From Candidatus Peribacteraceae bacterium (GTDB lineage Bacteria; Patescibacteriota; Gracilibacteria; Peribacterales; Peribacteraceae), in contig JAGORY010000001.1 of NCBI GenBank assembly GCA_018062585.1, positions 1-63,164 of the forward strand: a stretch of 63,164 nucleotides of DNA, in the 5' to 3' direction. A model generated the notes under the pieces. The model was not told the DNA's origin, did not search any database, and saw nothing but the letters and a program-made list of their open reading frames with translations. The translations under genes and the position numbers were made by a program. Below, in pieces: positions 2,720 through 63,109 of this stretch (positions within the stretch are counted from its first letter, which is position 1; the number at the start of each line of letters is the position of its first letter).

Positions 2720-2789
2720 GCGGGTAGAAGGTAGCGGATAGTGAATAGCAAAAAATCTAGCCGCAACTCGCTACCCGCTACCCGCTAGC
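2720..2789. repeat. heptamer-periodic palindromic element (GTAG element), copy 1
   Basis: Left arm is gcgggtagaaggtagcggatag (2720-2741). Right arm is gctacccgctacccgctagc (2770-2789). The CTA at 2785-2787 serves as the TAG stop of the upstream minus-strand ATPase gene. Confidence 0.8.
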
Positions 2790-5487: not shown

Positions 5488-5522
5488 TCCGCAGCAGGGA
5501 CGCGGCGTCCCAGTCTACGGGA
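5488..5522 (-). repeat. REP-like hairpin repeat, copy 3 (inverted orientation)
   Basis: The reverse complement reads ccgtagactgggacgccgcgtccctgctgcgg, nearly identical to 14351-14387 and 15201-15237. Confidence 0.8.
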
Positions 5523-10985: not shown

Positions 10986-13900
10986 ATGACGAAGGACATG
11001 ACCAGCGGCACTCCCGTGCCCCATCAGGGCGGGGAGGCCAGTTTCCCAAATTTGGACTGGCTCAAGGACGTGAAAACAATCCTCCTCCTTGGCTCAGGCG
11101 CGCTGAAAATCGGCGAAGCTGGTGAGTTTGATTACTCCGGTTCACAGGCCATCAAGGCATTCAAGGAAGAAGGCAAGCGCGTCGTGCTCATCAATCCGAA
11201 CATCGCGACCAACCAAACGAGCTGGGGACTTGCCGACCGGGTGTACTTCCTGCCGGTGAAGCCGGAGTTCGTGGAGAAAGTCATTGAGGCCGAAAAGCCT
11301 GAAGCGATCGCCTTGAGTTTCGGCGGACAAACGGCCTTGAACTGCGGCGTTGCGCTCGAAGATTCGGGTGTGCTGAAAAAATACGGTGTCCGCGTACTCG
11401 GCACCTCGGTCGACGCCATCAAGAAAACGGAGGACAGAGCACTCTTCAATGCCGAGCTCAATAGTATCGGTGTCTCAGTCCCCCGCTCCGTCGCCTGCGA
11501 ATCGCTCGAAACAGCCAAACAAGCGGTCACGACGATCGGCCTGCCGGTCATGATCCGCGCCGCATTTGCGCTCGGAGGCAAAGGCAGCGGCCGCGCGTCG
11601 ACGATGGAAAAAGCTGAAGAAATCCTGAAGGTCGCGTTTGTCGAATCACACCAAGTACTCGTAGAAGAGGACCTCACGGGCTGGAAAGAAATCGAGTACG
11701 AGGTGGTGCGCGACGCGTTCGATAACTGCATCACGGTCTGCAATATGGAGAATATTGATCCACTCGGCATCCACACCGGCGAATCCATCGTCGTCGCTCC
11801 GAGTCAGACGCTCGATAATGAGGATTATCAGATGCTTCGGACCATCGCGCTCAAAGTCATCCGGCACCTTGGGATCATCGGCGAATGCAATATCCAGTAC
11901 GCACTGCACCCGAAGAGTCGCACGTACCGCGTCATCGAAGTTAACGCTCGTCTCAGCCGCAGCTCGGCACTTGCCTCGAAGGCGACAGGTTACCCACTCG
12001 CGTTCGTCGCCGCCAAGCTCGCACTCGGCTACGCGCTACCGGAGATTAAGAATTCGATCACGCAAGTAACATGCGCCGACTTCGAACCGTCGCTGGACTA
12101 CGTCGCCGTGAAAGTGCCGCGGTGGGATCTTGCAAAATTTAACTTCGTCAGCACCGAAATCTCGACTGAAATGAAGTCAGTCGGCGAAGTCATGGCGCTC
12201 GGCCGCACGATGGAAGAAGCGCTTCAGAAAGCCATGCGCATGCTCAATAACGGATCACAAGGACTCTTTCCGGTGCCGTTTAAGTTCGTGAAGAAGAATC
12301 TCAAGAATGACATCAAGACTCCGTGTCCGCGTCGCATCTACGCCGTCGCCGAAGGACTGTGCGGTGACTTCAGCGTTGAGGAGATCAATATCATGACCGG
12401 CATCGACAAATGGTTTCTGGAGCGCATCAAGCGTTGCGCCGATCTGAAGCACGAACTTTTTCAAACTAAATCGACGGCACTGACGCCGGAGCTCCTGAGA
12501 CATTGCAAAGAGCGCGGATTTTCTGACAAAGGCATCGCGATGATCCGCGACGAAAAGCAGGAAGAAGTGACGAGCGCGAGACTGACGTTCGGTATCACGC
12601 CATTCGTGAAACAGATCGATACACTCGCCGGCGAATTCCCAGCAAAGACGAACTATATGTTCTTTACGTACAACGGGGCGGAGGCGGATGTGGTTTTTGA
12701 TATACATGATGAAGAAGGTAGCGGGGAGAAGGTAGCGGATAGAGACATTGTAACTACCCGCGACCCGCTACCCGCTACCCGCCAGCGCGTCATCGTCATC
12801 GGCGGCGGCCCGTACTCCATCGGTTCCTCGGTGGAATTCGACTGGTGCTGTGTGCAGGCGGTCAGGGAACTCATGAAACAGGGATACGAGGTCACGATGA
12901 TCAACAGTAATCCGGAAACTGTGTCCACGGACTACGACGAATGTGACCAGCTATTCTTCGACGAACTCACACTCGAACGTATGATGGACGTCATCAGACT
13001 TTTAAAACCGGTCGGTGTCGTCGTCTCGATGGGCGGACAGATCCCGAACTCGCTGGCGCTCAAGCTCGCCAAGGAAGGAGTTCCGATTCTCGGTACCGAT
13101 CCCGCCAACATCGATAAAGCCGAGGACCGCCACAAATTCGGCAAGCTGATGGACGAACTAAAAGTTGACCAGCCGGAGTGGAGAGAATTTGCCGATCTCG
13201 CATCTGCCAAGAATTTCGCCAAGACTGCGGGTTATCCAGTCATCGTGCGCCCCAGCTACGTGCTCTCGGGTGCGGCGATGACAGTGGTGATGAACGAGGA
13301 CGACCTCAAAGAATTCATCGAGGAAGCAACAAGCCTCAGTAAAGAAGCGCCGGTCGTCATCTCCAAATTTGAAACGAATGCCAAAGAAATCGACTTCGAT
13401 GGGGTCGCCCAAAACGGCAAGCTTCTTCTATACGCCATCAGCGAACACGTCGAGAACGCGGGTGTGCACTCGGGTGATGCGACGATCGTCCTGCCGCCGC
13501 AGCGCGTGAACATCGAGACGTTCCGGAAGATCAAAGCCATCGCCAAGAAAATTGCGCAAGGCCTACAGATCTCGGGGCCATTCAACATTCAGTTCCTCGC
13601 CAAAAATAACCGTCTCAAAGTGATCGAATGCAATCTCCGTGCCAGCCGCAGCTTCCCGTTTGCGAGCAAGGTAACGGGCGTGAACTTCGCCGAACTCGCA
13701 ACCCAAGCGCTTCTCAAGCGCGCTCCCGAGAACGTGCGGTACCAGACGATGGACTTGGATCACGTCGGTGTAAAAGCGGCGCAGTTCAGCTTCTCACGTC
13801 TCAAAGGTGCGGACCCGAGGCTCGGCGTCGAGATGGCATCCACCGGAGAAGTAGCTTGTTTCGGCCATAGTATGGAACAGGCACTCATGCTGTCCCTCAA

Positions 13901-14342
13901 AGCCATCGGTTTCGTGACGCCACGCAAGAACGTGCTCCTCACAATCGGAAAATTGGAAGACAAGATCGATCTCCTACCCGCGATCGAAGCGCTCAAGAAT
14001 CTTGGCTTCGCGTTCTTCGCAACCGGACGTACGCATGAATTTCTGGCATCGAGAAATATTCCGAGTGCGCTGCTGCATAAAATCTCGGAGCCACGGAGTC
14101 CAAACATCAAAGAGTATCTCGAGAGCAAACGCATCGACCTCGTCATCAATATTCCGCAACACAGTTCGTCCGCCGAAAAGACCGACGGTTACTTCATCCG
14201 CCGAATCGCAACCGACAGAGGCATCCCACTCATCACGAACGTACAGCTTGCAAAGCGCATCGTGGAAGCGCTGGAACTGGAGAAAGAATGCGACGACTCC
14301 CCGCTCATTCCGTGGCCGGATCTCTTGGTGCACAAATCCTGA
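10986..14342 (+). CDS. carB: carbamoyl-phosphate synthase large subunit
   Basis: 1118 aa with two ATP-grasp halves (GSGALKIGEAGEFDYSGSQA and GGGPYSIGSSVEFDWCCVQA) and an MGS-like C-terminus. Confidence 0.95.
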   Translation: MTKDMTSGTPVPHQGGEASFPNLDWLKDVKTILLLGSGALKIGEAGEFDYSGSQAIKAFKEEGKRVVLINPNIATNQTSWGLADRVYFLPVKPEFVEKVIEAEKPEAIALSFGGQTALNCGVALEDSGVLKKYGVRVLGTSVDAIKKTEDRALFNAELNSIGVSVPRSVACESLETAKQAVTTIGLPVMIRAAFALGGKGSGRASTMEKAEEILKVAFVESHQVLVEEDLTGWKEIEYEVVRDAFDNCITVCNMENIDPLGIHTGESIVVAPSQTLDNEDYQMLRTIALKVIRHLGIIGECNIQYALHPKSRTYRVIEVNARLSRSSALASKATGYPLAFVAAKLALGYALPEIKNSITQVTCADFEPSLDYVAVKVPRWDLAKFNFVSTEISTEMKSVGEVMALGRTMEEALQKAMRMLNNGSQGLFPVPFKFVKKNLKNDIKTPCPRRIYAVAEGLCGDFSVEEINIMTGIDKWFLERIKRCADLKHELFQTKSTALTPELLRHCKERGFSDKGIAMIRDEKQEEVTSARLTFGITPFVKQIDTLAGEFPAKTNYMFFTYNGAEADVVFDIHDEEGSGEKVADRDIVTTRDPLPATRQRVIVIGGGPYSIGSSVEFDWCCVQAVRELMKQGYEVTMINSNPETVSTDYDECDQLFFDELTLERMMDVIRLLKPVGVVVSMGGQIPNSLALKLAKEGVPILGTDPANIDKAEDRHKFGKLMDELKVDQPEWREFADLASAKNFAKTAGYPVIVRPSYVLSGAAMTVVMNEDDLKEFIEEATSLSKEAPVVISKFETNAKEIDFDGVAQNGKLLLYAISEHVENAGVHSGDATIVLPPQRVNIETFRKIKAIAKKIAQGLQISGPFNIQFLAKNNRLKVIECNLRASRSFPFASKVTGVNFAELATQALLKRAPENVRYQTMDLDHVGVKAAQFSFSRLKGADPRLGVEMASTGEVACFGHSMEQALMLSLKAIGFVTPRKNVLLTIGKLEDKIDLLPAIEALKNLGFAFFATGRTHEFLASRNIPSALLHKISEPRSPNIKEYLESKRIDLVINIPQHSSSAEKTDGYFIRRIATDRGIPLITNVQLAKRIVEALELEKECDDSPLIPWPDLLVHKS
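12717..12782 (+). repeat. heptamer-periodic palindromic element inserted in frame within carB (copy 2)
   Basis: Sequence: ggtagcggggagaaggtagcggatag ... ctacccgcgacccgctacccgctacccgc. It spans 66 nt (22 codons) and is translated as GSGEKVADRDIVTTRDPLPATR. Confidence 0.8.
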
Positions 14343-14350
14343 CTATACCC

Positions 14351-14387
14351 TCACCGTAGACTGGGACGCCGCGTCCCAGCTGCGGGA
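14351..14387 (+). repeat. REP-like hairpin repeat, copy 1 (tcaccGTAGactgggacgccgcgtcccagctgcggga)
   Basis: The 37 nt are identical to 15201-15237. A GTAG precedes the CTGGGACGC/GCGTCCCAG palindrome. Confidence 0.85.
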
Positions 14388-14752: not shown

Positions 14753-15184
14753 ATGATCCAGCGCGAAAGAGCCCGAAGCGGCGGCGTCATGTTCGTCACC
14801 ATGAACACATGGCACAGGAGACAGGTGTTCATTCATCCGAATTTCGCGACGAAGGCGATCGACTATGTGTATGCGCTCCAGAAGAAGCACGGTTTTCTGA
14901 TCCACGGTTTCGTCGTGATGCCCGATCACATCCATCTGCTTCTCACGATCAAAGCACCCTATACGATCGACGCTTTCACGCATGATTATCGCACAGGCTT
15001 AAGCTTCGAACTCGGCACCGGCGCGTTCTTCGAGGAGTACGTCGATCTCCGGATGCCGGAGAAACCGACGATGAAACTTGAGTACATGCACGACAAACCG
15101 TTCAAAGCGGCGCTCTGCGATAATCCCAAGAACTATCCGTGGTCGTCCGCTACAGGAAAGTGGAAGGTGACACCGATCGAATAA
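14753..15184 (+). CDS. REP-associated tyrosine transposase (RAYT; IS200/IS605 Y1 HUH family)
   Basis: HUH motif in VVMPDHIHLLL. The Tyr motif and tail LEYMHDKPFKAALCDNPKNYPWSS resemble the RAYT Y(I/V)HxNP...YPWSS signature. The ORF-track start at 14726 is TTG; the first ATG is at 14753. Confidence 0.8.
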   Translation: MIQRERARSGGVMFVTMNTWHRRQVFIHPNFATKAIDYVYALQKKHGFLIHGFVVMPDHIHLLLTIKAPYTIDAFTHDYRTGLSFELGTGAFFEEYVDLRMPEKPTMKLEYMHDKPFKAALCDNPKNYPWSSATGKWKVTPIE

Positions 15185-15200
15185 AAAGCTGCGAACACCA

Positions 15201-15237
15201 TCACCGTAGACTGGGACGCCGCGTCCCAGCTGCGGGA
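15201..15237 (+). repeat. REP-like hairpin repeat, copy 2
   Basis: Identical 37-mer to 14351-14387, located 17 nt after the RAYT stop. Confidence 0.85.
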
Positions 15238-15238
15238 G

Positions 15239-15820
15239 TTATGAATATACTGAGAATCCCGCCTTTTTGAGCAACTCTCCCAGAATGTACACCGGAAGTC
15301 CGACGATGCCGGGGTAATCCCCTTCGATATGGGAGATCATGAGCTGACCCGGTCCGTCGATTTGGAACGCACCCGAACGTCCGCGCCACAGGTCGGTACT
15401 GATCCACCAGTCGAGGTCTTTCGGTGACAGTTTCTTAAATCTCACCGACGACGTCGACATTCCTTCGTGAACACCGCCTTTGGCATCCACGATGCAGAGC
15501 GCGGAGTGAACCTGAGATATCGCGCCGCTTTGTGCTTCCAACATGCGCCTTGCGTCATCTGAGTCCTTCGGCTTCTCGAGGAGTTCACCCGCGTACGACA
15601 CCACAAGCGTATCGCAGCCGATGACGATGGCACCGTTATTCTTGGAAGCGATGTCCTCAGCCTTCAGTCGTGCAAGAATCATCGCGCGTTCAACCGGACT
15701 CTTTTCAGGATGACCGTCTTCATCGACAGAGCTTGGGATGACTTCGAACGTGACGCCCAAATCTTCAAGCAGAGTTTTTCGCTGTGGACTGGCCGAGGCG
15801 AGGATGAGACGGGGATGCAT
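15239..15820 (-). CDS. maf: Maf family nucleoside triphosphate pyrophosphatase
   Basis: 193 aa with motifs LILASASPQRKTLLEDLG, IGCDTLV and GAFQIDG. Confidence 0.85.
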   Translation of the reverse strand: MHPRLILASASPQRKTLLEDLGVTFEVIPSSVDEDGHPEKSPVERAMILARLKAEDIASKNNGAIVIGCDTLVVSYAGELLEKPKDSDDARRMLEAQSGAISQVHSALCIVDAKGGVHEGMSTSSVRFKKLSPKDLDWWISTDLWRGRSGAFQIDGPGQLMISHIEGDYPGIVGLPVYILGELLKKAGFSVYS

Positions 15821-15824
15821 GAAA

Positions 15825-15887
15825 GCGGGTAGAAGATAGAAGGTAGCGGGTAGAAGATCTATATACTATCCGCTACCCGCTACTCGC
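15825..15887. repeat. heptamer-periodic palindromic element, copy 3
   Basis: Sequence: gcgggtag aagatag aaggtag cgggtag ... ctatccg ctacccg ctactcg. It fills the spacer between the S41 protease stop (15892) and the maf start (15820). Confidence 0.8.
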
Positions 15888-15891
15888 TTGA

Positions 15892-17517
15892 TTACCGGAG
15901 AATGTCGAGCGCCCTGCGGAGCTGCTCATCACGATCCGCAGACTCGATGACGATGTCCGGCACGACGCCGACTTTATCGATGTGACGACCGAGCGGTGTC
16001 AGCCATTCCGCTATCGTGAGTTTTAAGGCCTCGCCGGAACGGAATCCGATGACTTCCTGCACTGTGCCTTTGCCGAACGTCGTAGCACCGACGATAGTGG
16101 CGCGCTTCAGGTCTTGGAGAGCTCCAGCTACGATCTCCGAGGCACTCGCTGAACCCTTATTTACGAGGACGACGACCTTCGTGGACGGGCTGATGGTAGG
16201 TTCATCCTGCGTCTTCTCGAGCGATGTCTCGGAGCGACTCACCACCTGTGCGACGACACTGCCGCGCGGAATGAAGTTACTCATGACGACGTCCGCTGCA
16301 TTGAGAAGTCCTCCTCCATTGTTACGGAGATCAAGGACGATGCCCTGCGGATTCTTCTCTGCGATTTTCTGGAACTCGCCACGGATCGTACGCTCGGTCT
16401 TCTCGCCGAATTGCACGAGCTGGACGACGGCGATGTTGCCGTGCCACGTGATCGTGATCTCGGGGATCGTCACGACATCGCGAACGACGGTGACGGTCAT
16501 CTCGGTTCCATTGCGACGAAGCTTGAGGAGGACGGACGTTCCGCGCTCGCCACGGATGTACGACACCGCTTTTTCGATGCCAAGTCCTTGGAGCACAACG
16601 CCGCCTGCTTCGAGGATTTCATCACCGGCCTGAATGCCGGCTCTCTCCGCAGGTGAACCCGGAAGCGGTGTGACGACCGTGACGATGCCTGCTTTGTCTT
16701 CCACATGTGCACCGATGCCAGTGACTTCACCTTTGATCTGCGACTGGAAATCAGTAGCACCCGCCGGACGGAAGAACGTGCTGTAGGGATCATTGAGTGA
16801 ATTCACGAGACCTTCGATGGCCTTGTACGACGATTCATTGTTGTCGAGCTTGTCGGCGTGGATGTAATCGCGCTTGATGAGGTGCCACACAGCATCCATC
16901 AGCTCCTGATTCGGGAGCGTGCCTCCACCCGATACCGTCACGGGGATCGTTATAGTCGTCTTCACTGGCATCTGTCCCGCGACGGCCTGCAGGACGGACA
17001 AAGCCTCGATACCCGTGAGCTGCTGAGAAAGACCGAAGTGGGACGCACTCTGTGGCACCATCCATTTCAGTGTCAGCGCGTTTCTCGCAGCCTGCTCTTC
17101 GCTCTCTGTCTTCAGATCTCTGAACGCTGAGATATCACCCTGTTCCTGTTTGTCAGTCAGTGCCGTCAGTACCTCCAAAGCCTCGCCGCGAGTGATCGGA
17201 CGATTGAGCGGATACTGCTTGGCGGTCCCGAAGACTGCGAGCGCGCCCTGTGTCTGTGCGGCACACAGCGTCTGCTTCATGCCCCGCGGTACACGGATAT
17301 ACGGCAGGCGGCACGTTCCGTTCTCCTTCTGGAGATCAAGCGCTGCAAATGACCACGAGAGAAAGTTCGCGCGCGTCACCGTTTTTGCAGACGTATCCAC
17401 GAGACCAACGACCGGCCTCGCAAAGGCGAAGGACGGTGCGAGGAGAAAAAGAACAGCAGATGCGGAAATGAGTCGGCGACGAAAAACCATACGCATTGGG
17501 GGTGAATGTTGCGTCAT
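15892..17517 (-). CDS. S41 family C-terminal processing peptidase with SLH-like N-terminal modules and PDZ domain
   Basis: Motifs: LDLRNNGGGLL, VLVNKGSASASEIVAGALQD, TFGKGTVQ. The ORF-track start at 17532 is GTG; ATG candidates are at 17517, 17496 and 17490. Confidence 0.85.
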   Translation of the reverse strand: MTQHSPPMRMVFRRRLISASAVLFLLAPSFAFARPVVGLVDTSAKTVTRANFLSWSFAALDLQKENGTCRLPYIRVPRGMKQTLCAAQTQGALAVFGTAKQYPLNRPITRGEALEVLTALTDKQEQGDISAFRDLKTESEEQAARNALTLKWMVPQSASHFGLSQQLTGIEALSVLQAVAGQMPVKTTITIPVTVSGGGTLPNQELMDAVWHLIKRDYIHADKLDNNESSYKAIEGLVNSLNDPYSTFFRPAGATDFQSQIKGEVTGIGAHVEDKAGIVTVVTPLPGSPAERAGIQAGDEILEAGGVVLQGLGIEKAVSYIRGERGTSVLLKLRRNGTEMTVTVVRDVVTIPEITITWHGNIAVVQLVQFGEKTERTIRGEFQKIAEKNPQGIVLDLRNNGGGLLNAADVVMSNFIPRGSVVAQVVSRSETSLEKTQDEPTISPSTKVVVLVNKGSASASEIVAGALQDLKRATIVGATTFGKGTVQEVIGFRSGEALKLTIAEWLTPLGRHIDKVGVVPDIVIESADRDEQLRRALDILR

Positions 17518-17528
17518 GGTACCCCTGT

Positions 17529-19103
17529 TCACTCCATCGAAACAAACGACTGCGTCTCGACCTTGGGGCCGAAATCTTTCATATCCTCCTCCCGTTCAAA
17601 CAGCGTCGAAAGTAACCAGAAACCGCCGACCACGTACAGAAGCGCCGGAACGAGGATAATGCCGATACTACTGAGGAAATGGTCTGGGCTCATGCCGAGA
17701 AGCGCGCCCACGGTACCCGGTCGACCGGGCAGCACTTCGGGCAGCGAAACGATGAAGTCGAAAAGTCCGTGAAGCACGATCGAATAGAAGAGCCCTTTCG
17801 TCATCTGCACGCGGGCATACAGTGTTTCGGTCCTGAGATTCAGCATACGATGAAGCCCCATGACGATGGGATGCGTGCGTCCAGATTCGAATTGCTTGCG
17901 AAGAATCGGGGAAGCGAAGAACGCAAGGCCGAAGTAATAACCGAGAACACCGGTTGCCAGAATGTGCAGCATCATCGTGAGCACGCCGCGTCCGACGACT
18001 GCCCCAATGAGCGGGCCCCATTGCGGCGACGGTGACTCGATAAGATAATCCGTGACGAAGCCGACGAAGTACGTGGGGTTGGCAAGATTTTCGGCAAACG
18101 CAAATCCGATTGCCACGATGATCGCGAGCTGCATCGTGTCATCAATGGAGCGGAAAATCTGGCGGCTGCTCTGTTTCAAGACCCAGAATTTACTGATTTC
18201 CTCGATGACTCCGACGATGAGATAGGTGACCAGTGTCACGAGAACGATGGACGTGGAACCTGTCGCGCCTTTGAAAATGCTTTCCGAGACGAATTGCTGA
18301 GACGACCCCCCGAAGTTGATCGGCACGACGCGGAACAGGAAAAAATTAAGCTCGATGCCGTGCACCATGAGCTCGTGATAAAACAAAATCGGTACGGTAC
18401 TCAGCATGCCCGCGAAGAATGCGAGAAGTACCACTGAGATGCGCTCTTTATGATAGCCAAGAAAGAGTCTGCACCACACGAGGACCGGAACCAGCGCGAT
18501 GACCGCGGCAATGCCGGTAGCGAGAAGTTCGGTCTGCGTTTTGTAGCGGAGAATGGCATAACACACCCAGAACAAGAACGTACCGAGCACCGTCGCCTTA
18601 ATGGACGTGCTCCACGGACCGAAGAGGAATCTCCAGCCGATGACGACGCTGACGAAACCGAGTGCCATGAGGAATGGATCTTCACCGACACCGGTCTCGA
18701 AGAATGCCCGCTTGAACACGATGAGAATCCAGGTCACGAGTGTGCCGAGGACGAACGCGTAGAAATACTTGTAGCGGTCCTTGCCGCCGTGCCAGCGCCT
18801 CTGATCAAAGATGCCGAATGCCAAAATGGCGAGGAAGACAAAGAGTGTGCGGTAGACAGCCGTAGATCCGGTGAGCGATTTCAGGGACGTATTCTTGCCG
18901 TACTTAAGCGACAGGAAAAACAAGAGTCCTGCAATGACGACGGATATGGCGATGGCCCCGAGCTTCGGGAGATACGGATGACGTTTCTCGATGCTGGCGA
19001 GAGACTGCTCTTCAGCCGTTTTCACATTCATCACACCGGTCCACACCCGAATGAGGATGAATGCCGCGCCAATCGCGCCGATGACCGCAAGAATTTGGAA
19101 CAT
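17529..19103 (-). CDS. polytopic membrane protein with PrsW-family intramembrane protease core
   Basis: PrsW-type motifs are present: EEISKF, GFAFAEN, LHGLFDF. It has many TM helices and a long N-terminal extension. Confidence 0.65.
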   Translation of the reverse strand: MFQILAVIGAIGAAFILIRVWTGVMNVKTAEEQSLASIEKRHPYLPKLGAIAISVVIAGLLFFLSLKYGKNTSLKSLTGSTAVYRTLFVFLAILAFGIFDQRRWHGGKDRYKYFYAFVLGTLVTWILIVFKRAFFETGVGEDPFLMALGFVSVVIGWRFLFGPWSTSIKATVLGTFLFWVCYAILRYKTQTELLATGIAAVIALVPVLVWCRLFLGYHKERISVVLLAFFAGMLSTVPILFYHELMVHGIELNFFLFRVVPINFGGSSQQFVSESIFKGATGSTSIVLVTLVTYLIVGVIEEISKFWVLKQSSRQIFRSIDDTMQLAIIVAIGFAFAENLANPTYFVGFVTDYLIESPSPQWGPLIGAVVGRGVLTMMLHILATGVLGYYFGLAFFASPILRKQFESGRTHPIVMGLHRMLNLRTETLYARVQMTKGLFYSIVLHGLFDFIVSLPEVLPGRPGTVGALLGMSPDHFLSSIGIILVPALLYVVGGFWLLSTLFEREEDMKDFGPKVETQSFVSME

Positions 19104-19209: not shown

Positions 19210-20607
19210 ATGCCAGCCCCCTCACTCGATGCATTAGTCTCTCTCTGCAAGCGCCGCGGATTCATCTTCCCGGGCTCGGAAATTTACGGAGGACTCGCGA
19301 ACACGTGGGACTACGGACCGCTTGGACTTGAGATCAAGAACCGCATTCAACGTGAATGGTGGAGACGTTTCGTCCACACCCGCAAAGATATGGTCGGCAT
19401 CGAGACCGGCATTCTTATGAACCCCAAAGTTTGGGAAGCAAGCGGTCACGTCTCGAACTTCGGTGATCCTCTCGTTGATTGCAAAAAGTGCAACCAGCGT
19501 TTCCGCGGTGACAAACTTCTCGAAGAAAAAATCGGCGTGGAAGGTGCGGCCGTGTTGACGCTTGATCAGGTACAACCAATGCTCGTCGCCGAGAAAATAA
19601 AATGTCCATCGTGCGGAAGCGTCGACTGGGCAGTTGCTAAGAAATTCAACCTCATGTTCAAGACCCAGCAGGGCGTCATCGAGGGCGAAGGTGCCGACAT
19701 TTACCTGCGTCCCGAGACCGCACAAGGCATGTTCGTGAACTTCAAGAATATCGCGAATACTAGCCGCAAAAGGCTTCCCTTTGGAGTCGCCCAAGTAGGC
19801 ACGGTGTTCCGCAATGAAATCACGCCAGGCAACTTCACGTTCCGCACCCGCGAGTTCCAGCAGATGGAGATCGAATACTTCGTGGAACCCGGTACCGAAG
19901 GACCGATCTTCGAGACATGGAAAGATGCGATGTGGCAGTGGTGCCTCGATATCGGGCTCTCTCCCGAACGTCTCCGCGTCCGCGAACACACGAAGGAAGA
20001 ACTCTCGCATTACTCGTCCCGCACGCTCGACATCGAATACAAGTATCCGTGGGGATGGGGCGAACTCTACGGCCTCGCGAACCGCGCAGACTTTGATCTC
20101 TCGCAGCATGCCAAGTTCAGCGGACAGGACATGACGTACACGGATCCCGATGATCCGACGAAGAAGTTCGTGCCCTACGTCATCGAGCCCACGTTCGGCC
20201 TCACGCGCACGGTGCTTTCAATTCTTTTGGAAGCATACGAAGACGAAAAACTGGAAGGAGACGACAGTCGCACGGTGCTCCATCTAAAACCGTTCATCGC
20301 TCCTTTCGATCTCGCGATTCTGCCGCTCTCGAAGAAAGAACATCTAAGCAAGTACGCCGACGAGCTCCACGCAAAACTGGTCGCCGAAACCGGACTCGTT
20401 ATCGACTACGATGTCACGGGCAGTATCGGCAAACGTTATCGACGTCAGGATGAAATCGGCACGCCTTCGTGTGTAACCGTAGACTTCGGCACGATCGGCG
20501 AAGACGCGGCGCAGGGTGAAAAAGACACAGTGACAATCCGCGACCGCGACACCCAGAAGCAGGACCGCCTCACGATCTCGGCACTCATCGACGTGCTGAA
20601 GAAATGA
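19210..20607 (+). CDS. glyQS: glycine--tRNA ligase (dimeric class II type)
   Basis: 465 aa. The N-terminus LVSLCKRRGFIFPGSEIYGGLANTWDYGPLG is followed by class II motifs. Confidence 0.95.
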   Translation: MPAPSLDALVSLCKRRGFIFPGSEIYGGLANTWDYGPLGLEIKNRIQREWWRRFVHTRKDMVGIETGILMNPKVWEASGHVSNFGDPLVDCKKCNQRFRGDKLLEEKIGVEGAAVLTLDQVQPMLVAEKIKCPSCGSVDWAVAKKFNLMFKTQQGVIEGEGADIYLRPETAQGMFVNFKNIANTSRKRLPFGVAQVGTVFRNEITPGNFTFRTREFQQMEIEYFVEPGTEGPIFETWKDAMWQWCLDIGLSPERLRVREHTKEELSHYSSRTLDIEYKYPWGWGELYGLANRADFDLSQHAKFSGQDMTYTDPDDPTKKFVPYVIEPTFGLTRTVLSILLEAYEDEKLEGDDSRTVLHLKPFIAPFDLAILPLSKKEHLSKYADELHAKLVAETGLVIDYDVTGSIGKRYRRQDEIGTPSCVTVDFGTIGEDAAQGEKDTVTIRDRDTQKQDRLTISALIDVLKK

Positions 20608-20638
20608 AAAATGAAGAGTGAAGAGTGAAAAATGACAG
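20604..20638 (+). repeat. heptamer tandem array (ATGAAAA ATGAAGA GTGAAGA GTGAAAA ATGACAG)
   Basis: Five 7-nt units. The first TGA (20605-20607) is the glyQS stop codon. Confidence 0.6.
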
Positions 20639-44589: not shown

Positions 44590-44813
44590 AAAATAATTGG
44601 CTCCCCAACGCGGCTCCTTCTAGCACTGACGACAGTGCATCGAGCACCAAGCATGCTTCCCGAGGCCTTCCCTCTAGGCTATCTAAAAACACATTTCCTC
44701 ATTTCAAGCAATTTCTTACGTTTTGAGTACTTAACTAAACATATTCTCTTTGTAACATAAAATGAACCTGTTAAGATATGTACGAAATACTATTTCTTTT
44801 TCCACTCTTTTCT

Positions 44814-45359
44814 ATGAAATACCCTCATTCATTTCCTTTCGTCACTGGAATCCTCCTCGTACTTTCTGCAACTTCGATTACCTCACTCCAGGCAAGCGAC
44901 ATGCTTTCCTCTGAAGGAGAAACTATGTCATCAGAATCATCACTGTCATCGTCAGACTCATCGTCATCAGAATCATCACTGTCGTCGTCAGATTGTAGTG
45001 GCGATCAAAAATGTAAACCTGAAACTCAACCACTGGGCGATAAAATGAAATGTCCGGAAGGATTCACTCCGTACATTTTCACAGAGAGCGTTGGTCCAAG
45101 TTCCGAAAAAAGGTGCGGTAGATGTGTTGGTGGCGAGTCCTGCAAAAAAGAAGGTAAAGAGTGTATGTTTGAAGCGGTCAAGAAAGAGCTAGCGGGTGTT
45201 AAATATGTTGAGGCAGTGTGTTCTTGTGAGACCCCAGAGTCTTCTTCTAGCTCTATCAGCTCTGATAGTTCAGATAGTTCCCCTAGCTCTACCAGCTCTG
45301 ATAGTTCAGATAGTTCCCCTAGCTCTACCAGCTCTGATAGTTCTATGAGTTTTAATTAG
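44814..45359 (+). CDS. secreted Ser-rich, Cys-containing low-complexity protein
   Basis: The signal-like N-terminus is MKYPHSFPFVTGILLVLSATSITSLQA. Serine-codon tandem repeats lie at 44928-44992 and 45258-45345. TAAGAT at 44772-44777 favours this start over 44778. Confidence 0.5.
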   Translation: MKYPHSFPFVTGILLVLSATSITSLQASDMLSSEGETMSSESSLSSSDSSSSESSLSSSDCSGDQKCKPETQPLGDKMKCPEGFTPYIFTESVGPSSEKRCGRCVGGESCKKEGKECMFEAVKKELAGVKYVEAVCSCETPESSSSSISSDSSDSSPSSTSSDSSDSSPSSTSSDSSMSFN

Positions 45360-45520: not shown

Positions 45521-45570
45521 TGGCTCCCCGACTTGGATTCGAACCAAGAACCCTCTCGTTAACAGCGAGA
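45521..45570 (-). repeat. 50-nt exact duplicate of the 3' part of tRNA-Asn (att-like direct repeat)
   Basis: Identical to 46530-46579, covering the anticodon arm through CCA. The flanks diverge immediately on both sides. Confidence 0.9.
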
Positions 45571-45876
45571 AGACTACGTAGGAGAGAAGAGAGGATAATA
45601 TTTCGCACCCCTCTTCTCGCAACTCTTCTGTGTTTCTTTTGCAAATTCAACCATTTCCGTCAGCGCATGAAATTTGCTCGCAACCGATGCATGTTTCATC
45701 AATCGAAGATGTTCTTTTTCAAAGCCCGATGTACGGTTCTTATGTGCCTTCATGAGCCTTCCAATTCTAGAAGTGCTACGACATCTTGCACGTCGTGCAG
45801 AGAATTCCGCTTCCCGAGGTGAAATGAAACCAACGGACTTGACATGTACACGTGCCCATATGTGTATACTTCCTCT

Positions 45877-46365
45877 ATGGAATCCTATAAAGATGTCTTT
45901 CAGAAGCTGGATGAAGCAAAGATTGACTATATCATCGTCGGAGGAGTTGCGATGAATTTGCTTGGTTGTCCTCGTTTCACGAATGATATTGATATTCTTT
46001 TGGCACTGGACGAGAAGAATGTGCAGGCAATGAAGCATGTCATGCAAGAATTGGGGTACGAGCAAAGAATCCCTCTGGCAATAGAAGAGTTGGGTGATGA
46101 GAAAAAGGCAAAGAAGTTTGTAGAGGAAAAGAACTTGCTCGCATACACATACTACAACGCTCTGGAACCGCTCTACTCTCTTGATATCATCGTTGATGCA
46201 TCTCTGCGCTTTTCCGAATATAAGAAGAATGTCGTCCACAAAAAAGTGTGGGGCCTGTCTTTACCGGTCGTCTCCATTGATGACTTGATCGGCCTCAAGC
46301 AGGAAACTCAGAGAGAAAAAGATGCTTTGGACGTTGCCATGCTGCTAGAATACAAAGGCCTATGA
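45877..46365 (+). CDS. minimal nucleotidyltransferase-fold protein
   Basis: The NTase signature is IIVGGVAMNLLGCPRFTNDIDILL (GG...D.D). The ORF begins at 45844; the likely start is MESYKD at 45877. Confidence 0.6.
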   Translation: MESYKDVFQKLDEAKIDYIIVGGVAMNLLGCPRFTNDIDILLALDEKNVQAMKHVMQELGYEQRIPLAIEELGDEKKAKKFVEEKNLLAYTYYNALEPLYSLDIIVDASLRFSEYKKNVVHKKVWGLSLPVVSIDDLIGLKQETQREKDALDVAMLLEYKGL

Positions 46366-46529: not shown

Positions 46530-46604
46530 TGGCTCCCCGACTTGGATTCGAACCAAGAACCCTCTCGTTAACAGCGAGATGCTCTACCGTTGAGCTATCG
46601 GGGA
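46530..46604 (-). tRNA. tRNA-Asn (anticodon GTT), CCA encoded
   Basis: A manual cloverleaf folds: TCCCCGA/TCGGGGA acceptor, GCTC/GAGC D stem, TCTCG-CTGTTAA-CGAGA anticodon arm, CTTGG-TTCGAAT-CCAAG T arm. Length is 75 nt. Confidence 0.9.
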
Positions 46605-59699: not shown

Positions 59700-60113
59700 C
59701 TACCCCTGGTTCTTCGCCTTCTCCAGATACTTCTGCAATACCGATACCGGTTTCTCCCCACGCGGGGAACTCTCGGCATGCTGATGCACGCCGGAAACCA
59801 TCCGATGATGCCGGGGAGCATTGAGTACTTTGCGGTAACCGCCCTGTCCGTTCTCGAGGAATTTACCAACGCGCGTCACAGTCGTGGTACTCGCACCGGT
59901 GTTCTTGGCGATCTCGCGGTACGTAATCCCCTGCGCTAATTGCTTCGCGACTTCAAATCGTTCACTCCATGCCTGCAGCTCCGAGAGCGTTCCGATATCA
60001 CGCAAAAAATTCGCCATCTCTTCCTCAGTCTTGATCTGCGTCATTGCCGTGCACAGAGCCCTGAACCAAGGCTCTTTATTCCAGCTGTCGTCGGTGAAGC
60101 GTCGTTTTCCCAT
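59700..60113 (-). CDS. TrpR-like YerC/YecD family protein
   Basis: EEMANFLRDIGTLSELQAWSERFEVAKQLAQGITYREIAKNTGASTTTVTRV. The start is taken at ATG 60113. Confidence 0.7.
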   Translation of the reverse strand: MGKRRFTDDSWNKEPWFRALCTAMTQIKTEEEMANFLRDIGTLSELQAWSERFEVAKQLAQGITYREIAKNTGASTTTVTRVGKFLENGQGGYRKVLNAPRHHRMVSGVHQHAESSPRGEKPVSVLQKYLEKAKNQG

Positions 60114-60356
60114 GGTTTCAGGTGATAGGTTAGAGGTGATAGGTGATAGACAATTGATGATGAAAGCGTGCCTGCTTGCCGGCCTTGAGTCCAAAGGTGT
60201 GCTTGCACGACGTAGCTCGGCCCTCGGTGCAAAAAAATTCACTCTTACTCCGAAGGATCGTTAGCATAGACGCTGAGCGAAGTCGTGTCAACTCGATAAT
60301 ACAAGATATGCAAGAAAAAAGCCCCACTCGGGGCTCCCTTCTTTCTTGAGGGCAAT

Positions 60357-62619: not shown

Positions 62620-63075
62620 TTACATCTTCGCAAAGTGCGCATAGGCCTTATTCGCCTGTGCCATCTTGTAGACGTCCTCTTTCTTCTTCACTGCGGAGCC
62701 CTGTTCGGCGAACGCATCAAGGAGTTCCAAGGCTAGTTTCTCAGCCATTGGGATACCCTTACGATCACGAGCGGCATTCAGGATCCAGCGGATCGAGAGT
62801 GACAACTGACGCTTGGGGGTCACTTCGATAGGCACCTGATACACGGCTCCGGCGATACGCTTGGGGCGAACCTCCACGAGCGGCGTCGTGTTGAGGAGAG
62901 CCTTCGCGAAAATGTCGAGTGGCGGATCCTTCGTGCGAGTTTTGATGATATCGAGAGCATCGCTCAGGATTTTTCGTGCGGTCGACTTCTTTCCCTGCTT
63001 CATGAGACAGTTGATGAACTTCTCCATGAGCGGATCAGAGCCTTTCGGAATGTACGGTTTCGGGAGGGTGGACAT
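62620..63075 (-). CDS. rpsG: 30S ribosomal protein S7
   Basis: 151 aa with a typical S7 sequence (KFINCLMKQGKKSTA...VEVRPKRIAGAVYQVP). Confidence 0.95.
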   Translation of the reverse strand: MSTLPKPYIPKGSDPLMEKFINCLMKQGKKSTARKILSDALDIIKTRTKDPPLDIFAKALLNTTPLVEVRPKRIAGAVYQVPIEVTPKRQLSLSIRWILNAARDRKGIPMAEKLALELLDAFAEQGSAVKKKEDVYKMAQANKAYAHFAKM

Positions 63076-63080
63076 GATGT

Positions 63081-63109
63081 GCGGGTAGCGATTAGCGGAT
63101 AGTAGGTAG
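63081..63109 (+). repeat. heptamer GTAG array, half element (gcgggtag cgattag cggatag taggtag)
   Basis: Four xxxxTAG units fill the rpsL-rpsG spacer. No right arm is present. Confidence 0.6.

Follow-up and report, generated by a model that had tools for sequence, protein, structure and literature searches.

How does a repeat that normally occupies the spacers of a genome come to lie inside the gene of a housekeeping enzyme while that gene remains open? This question is raised by a 63,164-nt stretch of Candidatus Peribacteraceae DNA (contig JAGORY010000001.1 of assembly GCA_018062585.1), hereafter the window, from a lineage of Peregrinibacteria within the Candidate Phyla Radiation (CPR). There, carB, the gene for the large subunit of carbamoyl-phosphate synthase, contains a palindrome built of tandem 7-nt units (heptamers) of a kind otherwise seen between genes. 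Our reading, to which we give a probability of roughly 0.85, is that a heptamer hairpin from the spacers entered the carB linker in frame as one 69-nt piece and is read as a loop of the protein. Coordinates are collected in Table 1.

The carB segment was first analyzed to address whether it belongs to the spacer family. Inspection of its DNA (ggtagcggggagaaggtagcggatagagacattgtaactacccgcgacccgctacccgctacccgc) reveals a left arm of four GNNGGTA-type heptamers at 12714-12741 (gaaggta gcgggga gaaggta gcggata), a 12-nt loop at 12742-12753 and a right arm of four CTACCCG-type heptamers at 12754-12782 (ctacccg cgacccg ctacccg ctacccg c). Across the family, arms are tandem arrays of 7-nt units (GCGGGTA, GAAGGTA and GCGGATA on the left, CGCTACC on the right), for which Tandem Repeats Finder gives a period of 7 and 3.3-4.4 copies per arm. 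In full copies the two arrays converge, and an inverted-repeat search of the window recovers them as inverted repeats I1, I3 and I6. Four family members are present in the window, three of them in spacers: two full spacer copies, one half copy and the carB copy. The motif GGTAGCGG occurs 13 times against 1.1 expected, a count reached in none of 100 shuffles. A profile of eight Peribacteria copies, three taken from this window itself, was run over the window using nhmmer with --max; the three full copies scored E-values of 3e-16 to 9e-19, the carB copy having 3e-16 under a profile that included the window's own copies. This result mainly shows that the window holds no further members of the family, and no additional degenerate copies were detected by it in other window genes. 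The similarity of the carB segment to the spacer repeats is far above chance.

The preliminary description had drawn the element as 66 nt at 12717-12782, translated as GSGEKVADRDIVTTRDPLPATR. That this is a copy of the spacer palindrome stands, as does the translation; the extent does not. In a codon alignment the window gene has 23 codons, no more and no fewer, that its closest ortholog lacks; the element therefore begins at 12714, and the extra three bases finish one more GAAGGTA unit at the left. On rereading, the 22-mer at 12721-12742 matches 2720-2741 of intergenic copy 1 at 21 of 22 positions, with the single mismatch at 12726, as had been reported.

As RNA, the carB element is predicted to form a hairpin of -36 kcal/mol on the plus strand (z -5.2; minus strand, z -6.4), and the three full window copies fold on either strand at -27 to -44 kcal/mol (z -3.5 to -6.4). 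Strand preference as a sign of RNA function was rejected, since folding is good on either strand, with no consistent advantage for one of them. In an Rfam search of the window, a tRNA alone reached the gathering score and no family was assigned to any element copy. Sub-threshold hits to Rfam microRNA hairpin models in five of the cross-phylum loci described below were dismissed as chance matches to any long hairpin. No consensus intrinsic terminator or sigma-70 promoter overlaps any window copy, and no T-tail is present.

To the question of whether the segment was inserted, the gene and its orthologs give a consistent answer. The product of carB is identical to the deposited protein named carbamoyl-phosphate synthase large subunit, with full-length matches to human CPS1 (PDB 5dot, E = 0) and E. 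coli CarB (1bxr, E = 4e-246). The protein is full length, with two ATP-grasp synthetase halves, the oligomerisation domain and the MGS-like allosteric domain, as judged from these matches and from precomputed Pfam domains. The ratio of nonsynonymous to synonymous substitution rates (dN/dS) is 0.03-0.05, with synonymous sites near saturation (dS ~1.5); carB is under strong purifying selection and is neither split nor frameshifted. Among 120 Peribacteraceae CarB proteins aligned with MAFFT, the nearest orthologs, P0002 (91% identity) and P0005 (88%), have a short linker and lack the segment, which bears out the expectation that the insertion is lineage-specific. Subtracting 69 nt makes the window linker equal in length to that of P0002 (locus L001; codon alignment), and comparing the filled carB site with the empty one in L001 shows no target-site duplication. 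Absence from orthologs and an intact carB both favour insertion, in support of the in-frame event first proposed by likeness to Rickettsia palindromic elements (RPEs).

Alignment places the insert between residues 548 and 557 of E. coli CarB and at 963-965 of human CPS1. The E. coli linker has 8 residues (549-556) against 33 in the window protein (564-596), in line with the shortfall of roughly two dozen residues first noted, and human CPS1 has 2 residues where the window CarB has 28. In the E. coli structure (Thoden et al. 1997), the 548-557 region reportedly joins the oligomerisation domain to the carbamoyl-phosphate synthetic half; so placed, the insert lies directly before the second ATP-grasp half, the position originally suggested. 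An AlphaFold2 model was built from 51 orthologs (predicted TM-score 0.81). Residues 575-597 have a predicted local distance difference test score below 50, and the model has no secondary structure over 562-600, between strands 556-561 and 601-605. Because of this low confidence and lack of secondary structure across the insertion site, mapping on the model, the check proposed for a surface loop, would place the insert in a disordered loop at the domain junction. The insert would add a 23-residue loop, probably unstructured, to an otherwise normal enzyme, and it is most likely translated as such a floppy loop.

Translation has to contend with the stop codons of the family. The consensus GTAG arm contains TAG in every frame, because at least three GTAG-bearing heptamers in a row have this effect, and any in-frame copy must therefore lose one stop. 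In carB, base 12726, a T in the spacer copy, is G; it is the first base of codon 581, which reads GAG. The TAGs at 12719, 12733 and 12740 are kept and lie out of frame (frames 2, 1 and 2). Both points agree with what had been read from the letters, and the proposal that in-frame stops are removed more generally proves true of further cases. A scan of one genome per species found four Peribacteria loci with the palindrome, two of them inside open reading frames (ORFs) of the metagenome-assembled genome (MAG) CAYQJY. Relative to 1vhn, the tRNA-dihydrouridine synthase Dus has ~25 extra residues at the junction of the barrel and the C-terminal domain; relative to 1v9p, the DNA ligase LigA has 20 extra residues just past its KxDG...YE motif. 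Their insert peptides, AGSGQQVAG...TTRYPLPAS and AGSDEQVA...KLPATRYQLA, resemble the CarB insert peptide, and both copies keep two to three out-of-frame TAGs. In other carB inserts with a stop-bearing unit, the in-register in-frame triplets are the one-base variants AAG, CAG, TGG, GAA and AAA; in-register in-frame triplets one base away from the out-of-frame stops occur in the carB inserts of L006, L007, L121, L122 and L123. Such a pattern of stop removal would be the signature expected if the segments are translated. As with RPE insertions, the CarB linker and the Dus and LigA loops are sites compatible with the fold.

Table 1. Positions of the carB element, related repeats and neighbouring features (window coordinates unless a locus is named)
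Feature	Position	Strand	Remarks
carB, carbamoyl-phosphate synthase large subunit	10986..14342	+	1118 aa, intact single open frame
In-frame heptamer-array palindrome	12714..12782	+	69 nt = 23 codons, encodes EGSGEKVADRDIVTTRDPLPATR; inside carB
GAG codon 581	12726..12728	+	sole left-arm position where the family TAG would be in frame
GGTAGCG palindrome in frame in dus (tRNA-dihydrouridine synthase)	L049:2458-2515		MAG CAYQJY; TAG position reads CAG
GGTAGCG palindrome in frame in ligA (NAD-dependent DNA ligase)	L060:7046-7102		MAG CAYQJY; TAG position reads GAG
Intergenic copy 1, full palindrome	2720..2789	+	fills spacer between two minus-strand ORFs
Intergenic copy 3, full palindrome	15825..15888	+	between maf (15239..15820, -) and S41 peptidase gene (15892..17532, -)
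Half copy, GTAG arm only	63081..63108	+	5 nt upstream of ATG of minus-strand ORF 62620..63075; profile E 4e-4
RAYT-like Y1 transposase gene	14753..15184	+	Pfam PF01797, E 3e-7; gene call from L117
Canonical GTAG REP (GTAG, 2 nt, 8-9 bp hairpin)	14351..14387	+	upstream of 71-aa gene and RAYT gene
Canonical GTAG REP, copy 2	15201..15237	+	just downstream of RAYT gene
Canonical GTAG REP, copy 3	5488..5521	-	inverted orientation

The window is one of many lineages with additional residues at this point of CarB. Between two conserved motifs the linker measures 18-22 aa in 51 of the 120 orthologs and 28-63 aa in 62 of them. When insert-bearing carB genes, the window included, were read as DNA, nine of ten contained heptamer arrays, with at least seven different units, and eight of the nine array inserts are two-armed hairpins (z -2.3 to -4.6). 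Units of the hairpin inserts are GCGGGTA (window), CAGTTGG, GGACTTA, GTGGCTA, AAGTGAT, AGCTNTG and AAGCGAT; the L120 insert has a GCGGGAA/GCGACAA array paired with CTTACCG. The insert in L008 retains one decayed arm, has lost the hairpin and shares its unit with a spacer palindrome of that locus. The L004 insert type (xEHPAHGxQxPIL), common to many orthologs as protein, contains neither repeat nor hairpin. Insert boundaries shift by several residues among lineages and the flanks share no motif, for which reason site-specific targeting within carB was rejected. Since units, boundaries and hairpin state differ among lineages, the pattern would fit many independent arrivals in a linker that tolerates them, with decay thereafter, and not one precise target site.

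In three relatives the annotated N-terminal tail of carB also carries heptamer arrays or palindromes in frame, at L002:3337-3393, L120:1614-1646 and L123:2374-2443. Glycyl-tRNA synthetase is 531-538 aa long in L005:12966-14582 and L007:18874-20469 versus 466 aa in L002 and L004, and an ACTAACC heptamer array is found just upstream of its start in L005; the length gap may represent a repeat-derived extension or a mis-called start.

The intergenic members of the family are closely fitted to gene ends. Spacer copies fill gaps between co-directional minus-strand genes, and for copies 1 and 3 and the half copy (copy 4) the distance to a minus-strand start codon is 0-5 nt. The TAG stop of the gene upstream of copy 1 (complement of 2785-2787) falls inside its last heptamer, and copy 3 begins 4 nt from the maf ATG. 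The GGTAGCG heptamer family also occupies the maf/S41 peptidase spacer in L004, where unit numbers differ from those of the window copy. Arrays of other units are present as well: an AGGTGAT x4 array at 60120-60149 starts 6 nt away from a minus-strand ATG ('cat' at 60111-60113), and two spacers (1694-1728 and 20597-20635) contain arrays of the GTGAAAA type, which L002 and L004 have as well.

To learn how widely such palindromes occur, one genome per species was searched for the pattern GGTAGCGG-N15-40-CGCTACCCGCTAC. The search returned 108 stretches against ~7 by chance, as estimated for uniform composition; 60 of the 108 carry five or more heptamer units, and many are heptamer palindromes. 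Hosts of the palindromes include Acidobacteria (one MAG, on >10 contigs), many Opitutaceae, Tepidisphaeraceae, Gemmatimonadaceae, Chloroflexi and others. Of the 120 flanks of the 60 elements that have five or more units, 33 have within 25 nt an ATG that opens an ORF of 100 codons or more (controls 8.3%, p 6e-10), and 38 have, at the same distance, a stop that ends such an ORF (controls 6.3%, p 3e-17). At most two of the 60 are inside an ORF. Actinomycete matches look like a different, locus-specific sequence: L009, L017, L018 and ~20 other loci of Streptomyces, Actinomadura and Actinoallomurus have CGCTACCTC repeats around a GGTAGCGG...CGCTACCCGCTAC palindrome. This conserved locus, found in many actinomycete species, is unlike the heptamer hairpins and has the look of an iteron or origin-like site. 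The shared GGTAGCG unit is not claimed as proof of horizontal transfer: with ~2,300 possible units by our own estimate, a few dozen genomes sharing one of them could arise by chance if heptamer families are common.

A transposase gene of the type associated with repetitive extragenic palindromes (REPs), the REP-associated tyrosine transposase (RAYT), lies just downstream (~400 nt) of carB, and this position together with the GTAG in the heptamers makes it an attractive mobiliser. L001, L002 and L005 have a syntenic copy of it with 78-82% identity; L004, L007 and L008 lack it. REPs are defined by GTAG or GTGG 0-2 nt 5' of a hairpin that has a fully paired basal stem of 7-20 bp and a loop of 2-5 nt (PMC6006769), and the repeat at 14351-14387 conforms to this rule. 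Because the RAYT gene is flanked by this distinct, canonical REP family, the heptamer element was not assigned to it and the candidate was rejected. In the Opitutaceae locus L033, too, RAYT is flanked by canonical REPs and not by heptamer palindromes, and tblastn found a RAYT homolog within 8 kb of only one of the 108 cross-phylum loci. The bracketing of a conserved 71-aa gene and RAYT by canonical REPs is in itself a REPtron-like arrangement in a CPR genome. Nor does the element match a miniature inverted-repeat transposable element, which has terminal inverted repeats and a target-site duplication and derives from a parent insertion sequence: comparison with the empty site in L001 gives no duplication, no parent insertion sequence was found in the window, and the whole heptamer element is inverted repeat.

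Two further repeats were recorded in the window. A perfect 50-nt direct repeat (45521-45570 and 46530-46579, 1009 nt apart) has as its second copy the 3' part of tRNA-Asn (46530-46604, -), with a 221-aa ORF (45574..46239, -) between the copies; the arrangement resembles an attachment-site scar left by a small integrated element. Tandem repeats of 36 nt (45235-45343, three copies; 44927-44992, two copies) lie in or next to ORF 44778..45359 and suggest a repetitive Ser/Asp-rich protein.

These observations can be assembled into a sequence of events. A tandem-heptamer hairpin (the GCGGGTA unit and its variants, then the reverse complement CTACCCG) normally fills short intergenic spacers. One copy would have entered the carB linker, between the oligomerisation domain and the second ATP-grasp half, as a single 69-nt piece, in one event that left no target-site duplication. 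Because 69 nt keep the reading frame and GAG stands at the one in-frame TAG position, the ribosome should read through it. Only stop-free, in-frame, loop-located copies would survive selection, and because this filter keeps such copies, the CarB linker and the Dus and LigA interdomain loops would collect elements. The insert itself may be neutral or nearly so and decay with time; eight inserts keep the hairpin, and those of L008 and L004 are without it.

Several points count against this account. The insertion event is deduced from genomes whose synonymous sites are saturated (dS ~1.5), with no empty/filled-site polymorphism within a species, and no target-site duplication, parent element or transposase is tied to the heptamer element. 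The linker is filled in about half of the lineages, which may be more than passive tolerance predicts. The balance of intergenic and intragenic copies is that of 63 kb of the genome. Translation of the loop is predicted from DNA.

Among the alternatives, an origin in place survives best, although we consider it unlikely: the palindrome would have been copied or built at carB, by gene conversion or template switching from a spacer copy, or by replication slippage and fold-back synthesis expanding heptamers locally. In its favour are the missing target-site duplication, the differing unit numbers of the orthologous window and L004 spacer copies, the half elements at 63081-63108 and 60120-60149, and the many unrelated heptamer units per genome, given that slippage has been proposed for bacterial heptamer repeats. 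Stepwise 7-nt growth in an essential ORF, however, would pass through frameshifted intermediates, whereas the insert is complete at 69 nt, or 23 codons. The 21/22 match of its left arm to copy 1 suggests that a template was copied, not that an array grew on the spot, and ectopic conversion needs flanking homology, of which none is visible.

Entry of a spacer hairpin as one piece could also be part of something larger. Heptamer palindromes may be an active, so far uncharacterised, mobile or self-propagating hairpin DNA found across phyla and, in the compact genomes of Peribacteria, a major source of new protein loops. Repeated occupation of the CarB linker would then be selected and not simply tolerated, for example as an mRNA hairpin pacing translation between the two homologous halves. 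We offer this extension as speculation and give it little weight.

A more restricted proposal is that the insert is kept because it is useful, either through a stable mRNA hairpin at the boundary of the homologous CarB halves that slows the ribosome so that each folds separately or through a role of the loop peptide. We regard this as doubtful. Filling of one linker in about half of the lineages would be explained by it, as would the hairpins still formed by at least eight inserts read as DNA, the strength of the hairpins (-36 to -44 kcal/mol) and the conservation of the older xEHPAHGxQxPIL type as protein across many orthologs. Yet the closest relatives have no insert at all, insert sequences and lengths are unrelated among lineages, and two inserts (L008 and L004) have no hairpin. 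The GGTAGCG family is also found in Dus and LigA loops that lack such domain symmetry, and the loop has low model confidence and no predicted secondary structure.

It is very improbable that the segment is an artefact or goes untranslated through mis-assembly, pseudogene formation, or removal or bypass at the level of RNA or ribosome, despite a metagenome-assembled source and a case built on DNA. The carB DNA recurs unchanged, insert and all, in the MAG GCA_017994595.1 and in two Logan assemblies made from separate runs, and since three further assembly records agree and the ORF is intact and constrained (dN/dS 0.03-0.05), an assembly artefact or pseudogene is excluded. Splicing or bypass is disfavoured because neither the length nor the stop constraint would then apply, whereas the length divides by three and, of the stops, the in-frame one alone is changed in 3/3 family copies (CarB, Dus, LigA). 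Finally, an ancestral linker, or a chance likeness to the spacer repeats, is scarcely credible: linker length is hypervariable across the CarB family, but the 91% and 88% orthologs lack the segment, the 21/22 match, complete palindromic heptamer build and profile E-value of 3e-16 are as given above, and the GGTAGCG palindrome recurs in other genes and phyla.

Read as an in-frame entry of a spacer hairpin, the locus extends a known phenomenon to a different type of repeat, tandem-heptamer hairpins that bring a stop codon into all three frames. A natural replicated experiment is offered by the CarB linker, with many independent and unrelated inserts at one site and at varied stages of decay, which show how spacer DNA turns into a protein loop and what single changes this takes. 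In practice, CPR proteins become longer through such inserts, alignments and gene calls can be led astray by them, and they can serve as strain markers. The family could also help to explain why heptamer repeats cluster beside start and stop codons in many phyla.

How does the heptamer element compare with known systems? RPEs (Ogata et al. 2000, as outlined in PMC10969869) are selfish palindromic repeats of ~100-150 bp found in frame in unrelated housekeeping genes of a reduced genome, where they encode a fold-compatible peptide, and each family has its own conserved open reading frame. The heptamer element differs in its size of 69 nt, in having a stop in every frame, one of which had to be lost, in its heptamer arrays and in its phylum. 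The preliminary description held that it mirrors the RPEs; this is apt for in-frame insertion into a housekeeping gene, but the likeness is functional only and the element is not a member of an RPE family. By phylum and heptamer-array build, homology to RPEs, here compared by description, is unlikely.

The GTAG/CGTC-tagged REPs of Di Nocera, De Gregorio & Rocco 2013 (PMC3733652) are short palindromes, mostly extragenic and often abutting ORFs. Some are wholly intragenic and encode 20-30 residues in Opitutus terrae, Rickettsia conorii and others; their hosts include DNA ligase, DNA-repair and tRNA-modifying enzymes, and the authors suggested flexible-linker sites (PMC3733652). Like them, the heptamer element is multi-copy, mainly extragenic and near ORF ends, and its TAG may supply the stop of a flanking gene, as in copy 1. 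In contrast to GTAG followed by one short perfect hairpin, its arms are tandem 7-nt units that contain GTAG; it departs from the REP rule with several GTAGs in a long interrupted stem and a loop of 12-28 nt, and from a REPtron in that its copies do not flank a RAYT gene. The table of PMC3733652 includes no CarB case and no GTAGCGG sequence, and no single hot site common to many lineages is reported for those REPs, whereas the CarB linker is one.

In build, the element resembles heptamer arrays, the long simple sequence repeats (LSSRs) and short tandemly repeated repetitive sequences (STRRs). GGGAATC arrays in Xanthomonas are often convergent inverted pairs (PMC4692102), TAACTGA arrays occur in Beggiatoaceae, Cyanobacteria and Bacteroidetes (PMC4679880), and the STRR heptamers of Calothrix are a third example. 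Among the long simple repeats of bacteria, those with 7-nt units are the most frequent, and polymerase slippage is their proposed cause (Mrazek 2007, as cited in PMC4679880). Like these arrays, the element consists of tandem 7-nt units in inverted arrays, lies in spacers beside stop codons or a few nt from start codons, has stops in all three frames at gene ends, can form hairpins from its inverted pairs, and has a patchy cross-phylum spread; the arrays, too, are described without vector or function. Known in-ORF heptamer arrays are at protein ends or in hypothetical proteins, whereas here complete inverted pairs lie mid-enzyme with the in-frame stop removed. A literature search returned no report of such elements in Peregrinibacteria or the CPR, no CarB case and no common hot site, and a literature search with the element sequence gave human primer matches only. 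The nearest prior art is the intragenic GTAG/CGTC REPs (PMC3733652) together with the heptamer-array repeats (PMC4692102, PMC4679880). In-frame palindromic repeats were already known; what is new is the recurrent CarB zone, the repeated removal of stops and the cross-phylum heptamer-hairpin link.

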